From Opitutales bacterium (GTDB lineage Bacteria > Verrucomicrobiota > Verrucomicrobiia > Opitutales > UBA2987), in assembly GCA_965226885.1 (NCBI GenBank), contig CBDDEL010000016.1:512001-576000 (forward strand): a stretch of DNA of 64,000 nucleotides. Reading direction: 5' to 3'. The position numbers were made by a program. Of the stretch, positions 33,001 to 36,000 are shown piece after piece. Positions within the stretch are counted from its first letter, which is position 1. Every line of letters begins with the position of its first letter.

Positions 33001-36000
33001 ACTAGGCATGAAGCCGAGCATGAGCGCCCAAGGCAACTGCTACGACAACGCGGCCATGGAATCGTTCTACGGCCGCTTCAAGACCAGCACGATTCGAGGC
33101 CGCCACTTTGCCGACGAGCGCGAACTGCGATCAACTGTCTTCGAATACGTGGAAATCTTCTACAACCGATATCGCAAACATTCCTCTCTGAGTTACCAAA
33201 GCCCAGTCCAATTCGAGGAAAATATTTGCCCCCCATGGGGGGCAACGAGAAAACAAAACCCTTTACCAAAACAAGCCGCCTGACACACTAATCAATAAAC
33301 AATGAATATAAGAGAATCCCGTGTCCAACAAATCCAGTACACGTCAGAAGGATAAGCGCCAGCATGAAGCATCCATGCGTAGTACCCGGGTAGTGTATAA
33401 AAAAAGAATGTTATTTTGTATTTTTAGCTGTACAAATAGCGTTAGGCAGTTTATTCTTAGTGCATGGTTACTAAGATTATTAATTGTCGGCACTGTGGAA
33501 GTGAAAATATCATTAAATTTGGCAAGACGCCCAACCATAAACAGCGCTACCGCTGCCATGATTGTGGTAAACAAAGCCGCGAAAACCCCACAGTGAAATA
33601 CACCGAAGAGCAAAAAGAAATGATCCTTCGAGTCTATCAGGAACGCAGCAGTCTACGCGGTTTACAGCGCGCCTTCGGGGTGAGTCCCAACACCGTTTTG
33701 AGTTGGTTAAAAAAACGACAATCGCTGCGACCGCTCAAAAGCACGATTCTGGCGGCCCGCCGCCATGATGTCATTGAACTGGACGAACTGTGGTCTTTTG
33801 TGGGGCGCAAGAGCGATGCCCAATGGGTTTGGATCGCTCTTTGCCGACGCACCCGTCAAATCCTCTCCTATGCCATTGGGCCTCGGGATTGGTATCGTTG
33901 CCGGGAACTTTACGAGCGTCTGCCACGGGCCTACAAAAGATGTGCCACCTACAGCGACTTTTGGAGCACTTATGATGAAGTCTTTCCTCATAACCGATCC
34001 GTGGGAAAAGAAACCGGTGAAACGGCCCATGTGGAACGATGGAACAATACCCTGCGCCAACGACTGGGTCGTTTCACACGCAAAACCCTCTCCTTTTCCA
34101 AGCTTAAGAGTATGCATGAAACCTGTCTGAGACTTTTCATTCATCAATATAATCAAGAATTAGCCACCATTCCTACTTAATACACTACCCAGAATTTGAC
34201 CGGGCAATCGGTCATTTTCGGCGCTATAACCAAAAATCACTGTCTAACCTGAAACCTGATGGGGTTTTCTGTGAAAAAGTGTTTTATCTGGATATGTTCG
34301 GTATGCTTGCCTCGTTCGCGAATCGATTTTTATTGAGACAGTCGTTGCCGACAATCAGGCAAATTCTAATCTGGGATCGATTTTTGGTGCCGTTATCCCG
34401 TATTTTTGACAAAGTGTTTTTTTATCGATTCGGAAAAACCATAGTTGCCATTTGGCAGAAAATATAAAATTAAGATGATTCGCGGTTTCCGCACTGGAAA
34501 CGTTCAAGCGCGCACTGGAAACGTTCAAGCGAATAGAAACATAAATGACGCCAGAGCCTTCAATTTTTTCCAATAAGTGGACTGTCTTTTCATTGCTTGC
34601 AATTGCCGCAACCGCTGCCAAGGCAGGCATATCCCTTTTGGGCTACAATTACGATGTGCAGTCATTTTACATAGTATCCGACCTGGTAGTAGAGGGAAAG
34701 AATTTCTACGCTGAGACGGCGAGACATGTTTACGGACCCGTTTGGGCCTATTTGCTGGGCGCGATCCGGTTCCTTCAATTATCTCTTTTGAATGACGTTT
34801 CCATACAAAATTTCCATCTTTTGCTCGCCCTGTTTTTATCTCTGGCGGACATCGCTATAGGTTTTGCCCTGTGGCGTTATTTTTCCTTCGCCGCTGGTTG
34901 CCTCTTCCTCATAAATCCGGTTTCCCTTTTATTAACCGGCTATCATTCACAAATCGAAAATCTGGCTATTCTTCCCGGAATCATGGCATGCGGGCTGCTT
35001 GCTGCCGGAGGCAAAAACCGGCAGTTCAAATTCTGGGCGGGAGTGGGACTCCTTGCGCTGTCGCTTTCGGTTAAGCATATTTTTTTCCTTATTCCCGTTT
35101 GGTTTTTATTCAACAAAAGCCTGAATTTACGTGAAAGACTTATATTATTTTTTGTCCCGGCCTTCATTTTTTTAATATCGTTTATTCCTTTTGTCATAGC
35201 AAATCCTGCCGCCTTCGACAGGGTAAAGTTCATTTTCACCGGTTATAGCTCCACCCACATGAGCGGCTTTTATCCACAACTCATTGATTTGTTTTTTCCG
35301 GTGAAGTTCTTTGAAAAAGCATTTTCCATTCTTCCAATTTTTTCGGGATTCAAGCTGATCTGGATCATTACCCTGGCTTCGCTTGGCCTGCTCTTGAAAA
35401 ATAAATCTCCGCTGGAGAGCTGCCTCATTTATCTGGTCGCCGTATGTGTGACCTCCAGCGCCCTGGTCGAGCAATACCTGGCCATCCCAATGGTCTCATG
35501 TATCGTATTCCGGAAAAATCCGGCCATGCGTTGGTATATTTATCTGGCCACAATTTTTCTGGCCACATCGCCCGCCAATATCGGCAGTCTACCGGCCATG
35601 TCATGGCTGGCGGCACCCACCCAGGCAGTTGGCCTGCAAGCATGGCATCCGGTGGCCGGGATGTTCATATTTCTGGTCTGGTATTTCTGCCGACCCAAGC
35701 TGCAATGGTCCCGAAAACCGGCTCAAAATACGGAGAGGGAAATTATTATAGAGAAAGAATCCGGAGTTTAATCCATGCCATTCGGGTGCAACCAACGGCT
35801 TGCATCGGGATGAATATCTGCTAAAAACTACGATTTAATGGTAATTGAGGTTAAAATTCCAACCCTCGGGGAAAGCATCACATCGGGTCTTCTCTCGGCT
35901 TGGCATGTCAAAGATGGTGACCAGGTTGAAACCGACCAGGCCATTTATGAGTTGGAAACCGATAAAATCACCTCCGAGGGATTGGCCGATTGCAACGGGC

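Follow-up and report, generated by a model that had tools for sequence, protein, structure and literature searches.

Control of transposase synthesis through −1 ribosomal frameshifting is usually illustrated with IS1. Elements of the IS1 family are about 0.7 to 0.8 kb long, have terminal inverted repeats of about 20 to 25 bp with a GG start, and duplicate 8 to 9 bp of target DNA. In E. coli, IS1 transposition shows a preference for action in cis.

A second route to frameshifted transposases is transcriptional realignment. In the accessible part of the study by Antonov et al. (2013; PMC3711429), this mechanism was inferred when members of a single transposase family shift in either direction at a poly-A site. 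The accessible part of the 2016 review by Atkins (PMC5009743) states that no insertion sequence (IS) with +1 ribosomal frameshifting had been identified and that several use realignment with a +1 outcome; the realignment described there consists mainly of added A's, at runs of nine. Slippage has been measured for IS1447 of Clostridium thermocellum, an IS3 family element with a +1 arrangement behind A9. As given in the accessible text of PMC6211511, all 30 DNA clones had A9, whereas among 52 cDNA clones 8 had A10 and 9 had A8, and seven A's suffice.

An abundant IS1-family element with insB in the +1 frame

The DNA analyzed here, called the window, is a 64,000-nucleotide (nt) stretch from an Opitutales bacterium (GenBank assembly GCA_965226885.1, contig CBDDEL010000016.1, positions 512,001 to 576,000); coordinates count from its first nucleotide unless a contig is named. 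A first-pass annotation had placed an IS1-family element at 33387 to 34191. The element is there, but we set its ends to 33389 and 34189 because the 2 bases on each side differ between copies. Its features are as follows.

33388..33410, + strand: left terminal inverted repeat, beginning GGTAGTGT; 23 nt, with 83% complementarity to its right counterpart
33389..34189, + strand: IS1-family insertion sequence, 801 bp, A7 ("ready-fused") copy
33464..34180, + strand: continuous insAB open reading frame (ORF), 238 amino acids (aa), with Zn ribbon, helix-turn-helix (HTH), and DDE_Tnp_IS1 domain
33464..33715, + strand: insA part, Zn ribbon and HTH, C-terminal ..SWLKK
33709..33715, + strand: poly-A tract at the insA/insB junction, A7 in this copy
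33716..34180, + strand: insB part of 154 codons for the DDE catalytic domain, in the +1 frame relative to insA where the run is A8
33765..34130, + strand: third-frame ORF, 121 aa, judged spurious
34168..34190, + strand: right terminal inverted repeat, 23 nt, end sequence ACACTACC

The assignment to the IS1 family, made in the first pass, is supported. PF03400 (DDE_Tnp_IS1) matched at 6.1e-22 and 78.8 bits (Pfam cut-off, 24.1), as expected of an IS1-type DDE transposase; the NCBIfam model NF033558 (transpos_IS1) gave 190.4 bits (cut-off, 100), and NF050000, the IS1/IS1595 Zn-binding domain, gave 48.1 bits (cut-off, 28). PF03811 (Zn_ribbon_InsA) scored 23.4 bits, slightly below its cut-off of 26.1, and HTH models matched weakly; in an alignment, four Cys are conserved. 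The size of 801 to 802 bp across copies, the 23-nt inverted repeats, and the start GGTAGTGT are those of the family. So is the target duplication: of the 178 copies, 101 have one of exactly 8 bp, whereas 3 have 7 bp, 3 have 9 bp, 61 have none, and the remaining 10 have inexact ends. The window copy has no target duplication.

These 178 full-length copies come from the 17 contigs of the genome and have a median identity of 99.4% to the window copy. Our recount of the junction run gave exactly the numbers reported earlier: A8 in 166 copies, A7 in 3, A9 in 1, and a motif interrupted or shifted in 8. The A8 junction, TGG TTA AAA AAA A, closes insA with its Zn ribbon and HTH; the insA frame continues for 17 further codons past the run to a TGA, and insB, with its DDE part open, is in the +1 frame in all 166 A8 copies. 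The arrangement first described is confirmed, and it sets the element apart from the classical IS1 subgroup, which has insB at −1. Both frames are intact in 135 of the 166 (insA open to the run, insB open for 153 to 154 codons), and additional lesions are present in the other 31. In the window copy the junction is TGG TTA AAA AAA CGA, which gives the single 238-aa ORF for which such copies had been called ready-fused.

The 121-aa frame that the gene caller reports exists as an ORF, but we rejected it as a gene, in agreement with the first pass. Its openness was equaled or exceeded in 833 of 20,000 synonymous-codon shuffles, and its 2 stops compare with a shuffle mean of 2.36. The third frame is open for 140 codons past the run in 148 of the 166 A8 copies, and for a median of 6 codons in the +1 relatives described below. 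A promoter scan of the left end of the element gave nothing convincing (3 sites versus 1.4 expected, none of them in the left inverted repeat).

The three A7 copies (contig positions C16:545387, C16:636004, and C17:494496) have three separate variant backgrounds with nothing in common except run length. Because they share no other variant, they are independent tips and not a founding lineage, and the variant comparison of the genome copies showed no A7 lineage that had multiplied. This weakens the suggestion that A7 is the active form and the A8 copies are defective. The accompanying caveat of homopolymer error stands: the A7 copies may be errors of assembly. Indels occurred at the junction run in 4 of 178 copies versus 1 of 178 at an A7 run near the left end, and because the junction rate is only modestly higher, the A7 copies may be errors or neutral mutations.

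Identity among the copies is about 99.4% and their variant pattern is star-like, and for this reason selection on the present copies is not measurable. A defective sublineage with a 1-nt deletion in insA comprises 5 copies at at least 4 sites. Because this sublineage has spread, transposase must act in trans in this genome, and intact frames in the A8 copies are therefore no proof that each copy supplies itself. Apparent diverged relatives within the genome, at 65 to 84% identity by tblastn, turned out to be ordinary copies with extra frameshifts.

A second IS1 type and the classical IS1

The genome holds another IS1-family element, also present in the window.

9943..10738, + strand: second IS1-family element, 796 bp, terminal octamers identical to those of the A8 element
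10007..10270, + strand: insA of the second element, with insB at −1
10256..10263, + strand: A8 run of the second element

Its −1 arrangement had been noted earlier and is borne out by 34 of its 36 full copies, which read TGG ATT A8 G. The two types resemble each other in the A8 at the homologous codon position, the terminal octamers, and the many copies; their insA products are 44% identical and their insB products 55%. They differ in the frame of insB, −1 after TGG ATT A8 G in one and +1 in the family of the window element. Because its insB is at −1, the second type requires either the gain of an A or a ribosomal shift of −1 at A_AAA_AAG. Both shift directions therefore occur in this one genome.

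IS1 of E. coli and Shigella, which makes InsAB' by −1 ribosomal frameshifting at A6C, shares with the window element the length of about 0.8 kb, the inverted repeats, the Pfam and NCBIfam family, the order of a Zn-ribbon/HTH InsA before the DDE part, and the presence of a poly-A tract where both proteins read ..W-L/I-K-K, a homologous site. A Shigella copy, which reads TTAAAAAAC, was called −1 by the same frame caller that we applied to the relatives below. The differences are −1 and A6 there versus +1 and A8 here, with a protein identity of about 36%. Because insB is at +1, a −1 ribosomal shift cannot yield transposase in the window element. Single-ORF elements of the IS1 family encode transposases of about 240 aa that align end to end with the 238-aa fusion at 50 to 61% identity, but they have no A run at the junction.

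Both split directions among metagenome relatives

We called frames with hidden Markov models (HMMs) in the 80 nearest metagenome relatives (41 to 58% identity), of which 76 were classifiable and 4 could not be called; these relatives are kin, and so the counts overstate independence. The poly-A site of the window element is also where 20 relatives are split at +1 (12 with an A7 run, 8 with A8) and another 17 at −1 (A8 in 12, A9 in 3, A7 in 1, and A5G5 in 1); 39 are in frame, 31 of these with no run longer than 5. These calls supersede two cruder ones on the same 80 loci, one from tblastn segments (47 in frame, 19 at +1, and 14 at −1) and one with regex anchors, which classified 48.

A run of at least 7 A's is present in 36 of the 37 split relatives. 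In contrast to these 36 loci, long runs among in-frame relatives are confined to 2 with A6, 2 with A9, and 4 with A7. The last four (L093, L098, L102, and L105) are ambiguous, as they look split locally and have a second shift downstream. In all 20 of the +1 relatives insB is open for 137 to 154 aa to its natural stop, and the insA stop lies 2 to 26 codons past the run. Codons of the AAGAAGAA type keep Lys-Lys without the capacity to slip.

In a tree built from 69 insB rows, +1 and −1 elements are interleaved in one poly-A group of 48 rows, and the tree requires 16 state changes. One starred sister pair is of opposite direction (L151 at −1 and L152 at +1). The in-frame single-ORF relatives form a separate group of 21 rows, with weak support (73). 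The earlier claim that InsAB can be made only by the loss of one A or by a +1 ribosomal shift thus gains comparative support from 20 of the 76 classifiable relatives, which are at +1, have insB intact, and are interleaved with −1 elements.

The A8 state in other genomes and libraries

In a metagenome-assembled genome (MAG) from a sister genus, A8 is found at 43 of the 47 loci in which the site is present, and it recurs in a fragmented second MAG, so that A8 is the majority state in three genomes. About 45 copies of the element are present in the sister species. The A7 copy of the sister MAG has an extra insertion and flanks without a match in this genome, and its orthology to an A7 copy here was rejected. 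At least half of the element's words were found in 20 sequencing runs from 7 studies, 3 of the runs being RNA libraries of one study. Logan contigs from these RNA libraries (X7, X14, and X16) have A8 at a depth of 5 to 6; as assembled consensus they are no proof of transcription and are silent on minor A7 or A10 transcripts. A contig from an Illumina DNA run (X1) has A8 at a depth of 143. Because the majority of genome copies, two MAGs, and the Illumina RNA and DNA contigs all show A8, it is real and is the state that propagates.

An intact +1 copy is carried by a Moraxella osloensis plasmid, for which insA alone is named in the plasmid table, a table that leaves out pseudogenes, so that the source record may be fuller. 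The −1 plasmid relatives are annotated as one joined CDS. Several of the plasmid frame calls depend on weak N-part scores; one locus (L177) is in frame by the caller, but its annotated CDS span of 728 nt implies a −1 join.

Probable programmed transcriptional realignment

As a sequence pattern, the A8/+1 layout matches the signature that has been published for programmed transcriptional realignment. Its frame junction holds a homopolymer of about 7 or more A/T (A8 in 166 of 178 copies and at least 7 A's in 36 of 37 split relatives), and the run is kept while direction varies (20 at +1 and 17 at −1, interleaved), which is the pattern used in the accessible part of PMC3711429. We consider it probable, judging from these comparisons, that the element is an autonomous member of the IS1 family in which transcripts that have lost one A encode the transposase and unslipped RNA encodes InsA.

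RNA polymerase would slip on the eight A:T pairs. The majority of transcripts would retain A8 and encode InsA of 101 aa, a protein that may bind the element ends and repress, as the analogy with E. coli IS1 suggests. From a minority with one A fewer (A7) or two more (A10), ordinary translation would give an InsAB of 238 or 239 aa, the low ratio of transposase to InsA being set by the slippage rate. The A7 copies in DNA would be occasional replication-slippage derivatives of A8 elements, or assembly errors, and not their source.

An experimental precedent is IS1447, in which orfB also lies at +1 of orfA behind an A run and the loss of one A produces the fusion; seven A's suffice there, and 7 is likewise the shortest run among our +1 relatives. 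IS1447, as the accessible text of PMC6211511 describes it, differs in belonging to another IS family with another class of transposase fold, and slippage was measured there, whereas here it is proposed. The Roseiflexus IS630 element likewise has a trans-frame transposase that requires a transcript one base short, but according to the accessible part of PMC5009743 it uses a T5C5 heteropolymer with a strong 5' nascent-RNA hairpin, in contrast to the homopolymer A8 of the window element. Our folds, including those of relatives, gave no convincing or class-specific hairpin at the A8 junction. A weak 5' stem of 5 bp and −4.5 kcal/mol ends 2 nt upstream of the run. The mean folding energies of the upstream 32 nt were −6.35 for +1, −6.6 for −1, and −7.8 for in-frame relatives; a 5' hairpin as a class-specific stimulator was rejected on the grounds that the upstream fold is equal across the three classes.

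Other explanations

If a stochastic switch instead operated in the DNA, the A8 copies would be nonautonomous, and rare A7 revertants arising by replication slippage, such as the window copy, would make constitutively fused InsAB and mobilize the A8 majority in trans. We think this unlikely. The three A7 copies do encode an uninterrupted 238-aa InsAB, mobilization in trans does occur (the insA-frameshift sublineage of 5 copies at at least 4 sites), and 166 A8 copies are a large mutational target. However, the A7 copies are three unrelated tips, none of which has multiplied, whereas a source should copy itself most if it has the cis preference of E. coli IS1. Moreover, A8 is the majority in three genomes, and the A7 copies may themselves be errors or neutral mutations, given the indel counts of 4/178 versus 1/178. 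Free drift of the run also predicts about as many in-frame loci with long runs as split ones, but the in-frame loci with 2 A6, 2 A9, and 4 ambiguous A7 runs stand against 36 split loci. Findings on E. coli IS1 bear on both sides: in the accessible part of PMC12428005, transposition rose about 900-fold when the two frames were fused by engineering, which favors a fused A7 source, but from the same report one would expect an A7 copy to be repressed by InsA from the approximately 135 A8 copies that are intact.

We regard +1 ribosomal frameshifting as very improbable. In this model, peptidyl-tRNA-Lys would move within AAA_AAA_A from one AAA to the AAA that overlaps it, after which CGA would be read. 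The run permits perfect re-pairing in the +1 frame, and because the product is identical to that of one-A loss, the sequence by itself does not discriminate between the two routes. Nevertheless, this genome has a tRNA-Thr(CGU) cognate to ACG, the codon that follows the run in the zero frame, and the shift site contains neither a stop nor a known hungry codon. Four A's would be enough for such a shift, yet all 20 of the +1 relatives hold 7 or 8. Direction flips among close relatives, whereas it is conserved in orthologues that use ribosomal frameshifting (accessible part of PMC3711429); the slow or stop A-site codon and the conserved direction of prfB-type +1 frameshifting are thus both missing here. 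Finally, no IS of this kind was known to the 2016 review, in its accessible part (PMC5009743).

That the family is a dead burst, with an in-frame master copy lost and the A8 split a fixed lesion that leaves nothing to explain, is hardly credible: copies that are star-like and about 99.4% identical, with further lesions already in 31 of 166 A8 copies, would fit, but a lesion that preceded more than 170 copies here and about 45 in the sister species needs a long-lived separate helper, none of which was seen, and the same +1 split with insB intact occurs in 20 diverged relatives and in the Moraxella plasmid copy.

Discussion

We found no description of a +1 arrangement in IS1 elements in the searchable papers, a search that covered neither Sharma et al. 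(2011) nor ISfinder. In the accessible part of the GeneTack survey (PMC3711429), the sole DDE_Tnp_IS1 cluster among clusters of at least 100 genes is −1. The arrangement is common: one in four of the 80 nearest metagenome relatives has it, and this genome alone carries about 170 copies. Because a −1 shift cannot make its transposase, no natural example in the IS1 family would make a cleaner case for transcriptional slippage.

Annotation misses +1 elements, as the gene caller splits them into insA and a spurious ORF. The rule that a Trp codon plus 10 nt means +1 and a Trp codon plus 11 nt means −1 would allow IS annotators to call the transposase correctly and would aid in judging the potential activity of individual copies where a genome is rich in IS.

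The broader proposition is that a large clade of the IS1 family depends on transcriptional slippage in both directions at a single poly-A tract, with lineages flipping direction repeatedly; we hold the arguments for and against it to be evenly balanced. If it is true, the length of the tract after the Trp codon (A7/A8 versus A8/A9) decides whether the loss or the gain transcript encodes the transposase. The two IS1 types of this genome, which have their terminal octamers and the A8 tract in common, would then use opposite slippage products, and therefore a change in the loss/gain bias of the polymerase would lift the transposase of one element and lower that of the other.

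Structure of the element

The window copy is an IS1-family element in which insA (the zinc-ribbon and helix-turn-helix [HTH] part) and insB (the DDE part) form one open reading frame (ORF) across a run of seven A's.

33389-34189, IS1-family element, 801 bp, with 23-nt terminal inverted repeats (left begins GGTAGTGT.., right finishes ..ACACTACC)
33464-34180, single ORF of 238 aa, InsAB
33709-33715, poly-A junction of seven A's, TGG TTA AAA AAA CGA
9943-10738, second IS1 type, 796 bp, with the same terminal octamers

The first-pass annotation placed the limits at 33387-34191, but copies differ in the two bases on the outer side of each terminal octamer, and we therefore set them at 33389-34189. 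The 238-aa product has a zinc-binding domain of the IS1/IS1595 type, a weak HTH, and an IS1 DDE domain (Pfam PF03400, 6e-22); it scores 190 bits against NCBIfam NF033558 (cut-off 100) and 48 bits against NF050000 (cut-off 28). A search of the left end of the element gave no clear promoter. A 121-aa ORF in the third frame was dropped as a gene because its length is not above expectation. On the minus strand, a terminator-like hairpin at 33718-33734 is followed by a T run, complementary to the poly-A tract. Antisense transcription running into the element could end there, or the hairpin may be due to chance, given three such sites in the kilobase scanned versus 1.1 expected.

Copies in the genome

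Searching the genome (17 contigs, 5.48 Mb) gave 178 full-length copies with a median identity of 99.4% to the window copy. The junction run was A8 in 166, A7 in 3, A9 in 1, and interrupted or shifted in 8, exactly the counts previously reported. The earlier claim that insB lies at +1 of insA behind A8 was also confirmed: insA continues for 17 codons past the run before a TGA ends it, and frame +1 is open through the DDE part. Both frames are intact in 135 of the 166 A8 copies (insA uninterrupted up to the run, insB open for 153 to 154 codons); insB is broken in 21, insA in 2, and both in 4, and the start motif is missing from 4. The same interrupted run, AAAAGAAA, is present in four copies (C17:498552, C14:409658, C13:416232, and C15:595918); it should not slip, yet it is found at four sites.

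An exact 8-bp target duplication flanks 101 of the 178 copies; 3 have 7 bp, 3 have 9 bp, and 10 have inexact ends. Across all contigs, 61 copies, including the window copy, lack a duplication, which suggests that in this IS-rich genome many recombination events joined one copy to another, or that insertions are nested.

The A8 state is not a long-read artifact, because it is also found in Illumina contigs (three RNA libraries and one DNA run) and in related metagenome-assembled genomes (MAGs). The RNA-library contigs are assembled consensus sequences in which minor run-length species are invisible. Among 47 loci holding the site in two related MAGs, 43 have A8 (one of them from a fragmented assembly), 2 have T3A7, which is of equal length, 1 has A7, and 1 has A9; A8 is the majority state in the sister-genus MAG.

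The three A7 copies have three distinct variant backgrounds, and the missing A is their sole common variant. They arose independently or are errors, and none has given rise to further copies; homopolymer error may account for all three. The two outside the window differ in target duplication (8 bp at one, none at the other). Run length changed in 4 of 178 copies at the junction versus 1 of 178 at an A7 run near the left end, only somewhat more frequently.

If A7 copies were the source of transposase for A8 copies, transposase would have to work in trans. That it does so in this genome follows from a sublineage of five copies (C16:693348, C17:214302, C12:46330, C14:387047, and C11:37580) with a common 1-nt insA deletion, accompanied by several substitutions each found in five copies, a defective form that reached at least four different sites (two copies lie within a segmental duplicate). 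However, the A7 copies are independent and sterile, so this explanation is weakened, although it keeps some weight.

Full copies of the second IS1 type number 36; the junction is TGG ATT A8 G in 34, and insB is at -1. Thus, one genome carries both shift directions at the same tract. The terminal octamers common to the two types raise the question of cross-mobilization.

Frames among relatives

Matches to the fused protein were thousands of one-ORF IS1 transposases of ~240 aa with at most 61% identity. Because a protein search in this size range is blind to split forms, we fetched the DNA of the 80 best metagenome loci (41 to 58% identity) and called frames with two HMMs built on segments of the alignment, one for the HTH end and one for the ELDELW start.

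Frame of insB relative to insA at 80 metagenome loci
+1: 20 loci; TGG NTN A7 G in 12, TGG NT A8 G in 8
-1: 17 loci; A8 in 12, A9 in 3, A7 in 1, A5G5 in 1
In frame: 39 loci; no run of at least 5 in 25, A5 in 6, A6 in 2, A7 in 4, A9 in 2
Not callable: 4 loci

The four in-frame A7 loci have a second shift further downstream. The distance from the Trp codon to the first base past the run follows a rule, 10 bases for +1, 11 for -1, and 9 or 12 for in frame, which the window-type element (TGG TT A8 C) obeys. In all 20 +1 loci, insB is open for 137 to 154 aa to its stop and insA stops 2 to 26 codons past the run; insB is open for at least 136 aa in 16 of the 17 -1 loci. As a control, the caller gave -1 for Shigella IS1, at TTAAAAAAC.

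An insB tree covered 69 rows, the window and 68 loci (4 uncallable loci and 8 with insB below 120 aa were omitted). One group of 21 rows, with weak support (73), is entirely in frame and without a run; in the other 48 rows, 21 +1, 16 -1, and 11 in-frame members are interleaved. The three states require 16 changes versus a shuffled mean of 30.4, and one starred sister pair (L151, -1; L152, +1; support 95) has opposite directions.

The nearest relative on the tree, L065 (1498-2145 of its contig, G036:C14), and L115 have TGG CT A9 G, an in-frame TAG, and a T8 run ending TTT TTT TGA. The linker homologue (KKKAQ..) falls in frame -1, and the DDE frame is regained only if the T run, which precedes a stop codon as in prfB, allows a further shift of +1. 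Such an element is recoded twice, or else it is dead.

Plasmids also carry relatives. Moraxella osloensis pNP7-1 (L175) has an intact +1 copy, TGG TT A8 G, with the same terminal octamer as the element, and Acaryochloris marina pREC1 (L183) has A8GG, called +1 although its N-part score is weak; both are complete plasmids of cultured bacteria. In a relative from Acaryochloris with A9GG, one CDS is annotated, and its span implies that the join is -1. For another plasmid relative, L177, the caller gave in frame and the annotated CDS span -1. In the plasmid gene table, which excludes pseudogenes and from which the original records may differ, +1 types have insA alone named (L175) or nothing, and -1 relatives are listed as one CDS of length 3n-1. 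Some -1 relatives (L134 and L179, the latter on a Deinococcus wulumuqiensis plasmid) have A5G5 in place of a long A run, a two-homopolymer slippage motif like the T5C5 of Roseiflexus IS630.

Probable realignment at the A run

The sequences show the frames and their conservation. Split frames have at least seven A's, unsplit ones are almost without a run, and direction flips among close relatives. For Antonov et al. (PMC3711429), this three-part pattern distinguishes programmed transcriptional realignment from ribosomal frameshifting, and the sole large IS1 cluster of that survey is -1. According to Atkins et al. 2016 (PMC5009743), no IS is known with +1 ribosomal frameshifting, and in several it is realignment that yields the +1 outcome. 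The closest tested precedent is IS1447 of the IS3 family, also with a poly-A run (A9) and orfB at +1. For it, the cited results report that seven A's are enough and that cDNA clones had A10 in 8 and A8 in 9 of 52, with A9 in 30 of 30 DNA clones (PMC6211511). Together, these lines lead us to infer realignment in the window-type element.

The protein would be identical after a +1 slip of the ribosome on AAA_AAA_A. However, the genome has a tRNA for ACG, the codon that follows, four A's would do and yet seven or eight are kept, and the direction of the shift is not conserved. That the family is dead and the split a fixed lesion is at odds with the diverged relatives, in which this split recurs and insB is intact. 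A class-specific upstream hairpin was sought among the relatives and not found.

With realignment, InsA would be translated from unslipped A8 RNA and InsAB from RNA minus one A (or plus two). By analogy with E. coli IS1, in which InsA is described as a repressor and the InsAB-to-InsA ratio as governing the transposition rate (PMC12428005), InsA would repress and the ratio would set the rate.

Although of the IS1 family, the window-type element lacks the defining feature of the classical IS1 subgroup, insB at -1, and probably shares its mode of action with poly-A realignment elements of the IS3, IS630, and IS5-type families. The +1 IS1 arrangement is not a new principle; we found no description of it in the literature searched, a set that does not extend to ISfinder and Sharma et al. 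2011. The two IS1 types of this genome offer a natural paired comparison of both shift directions. The +1 arrangement is widespread and misannotated, in a family that is the textbook case of the other mechanism.
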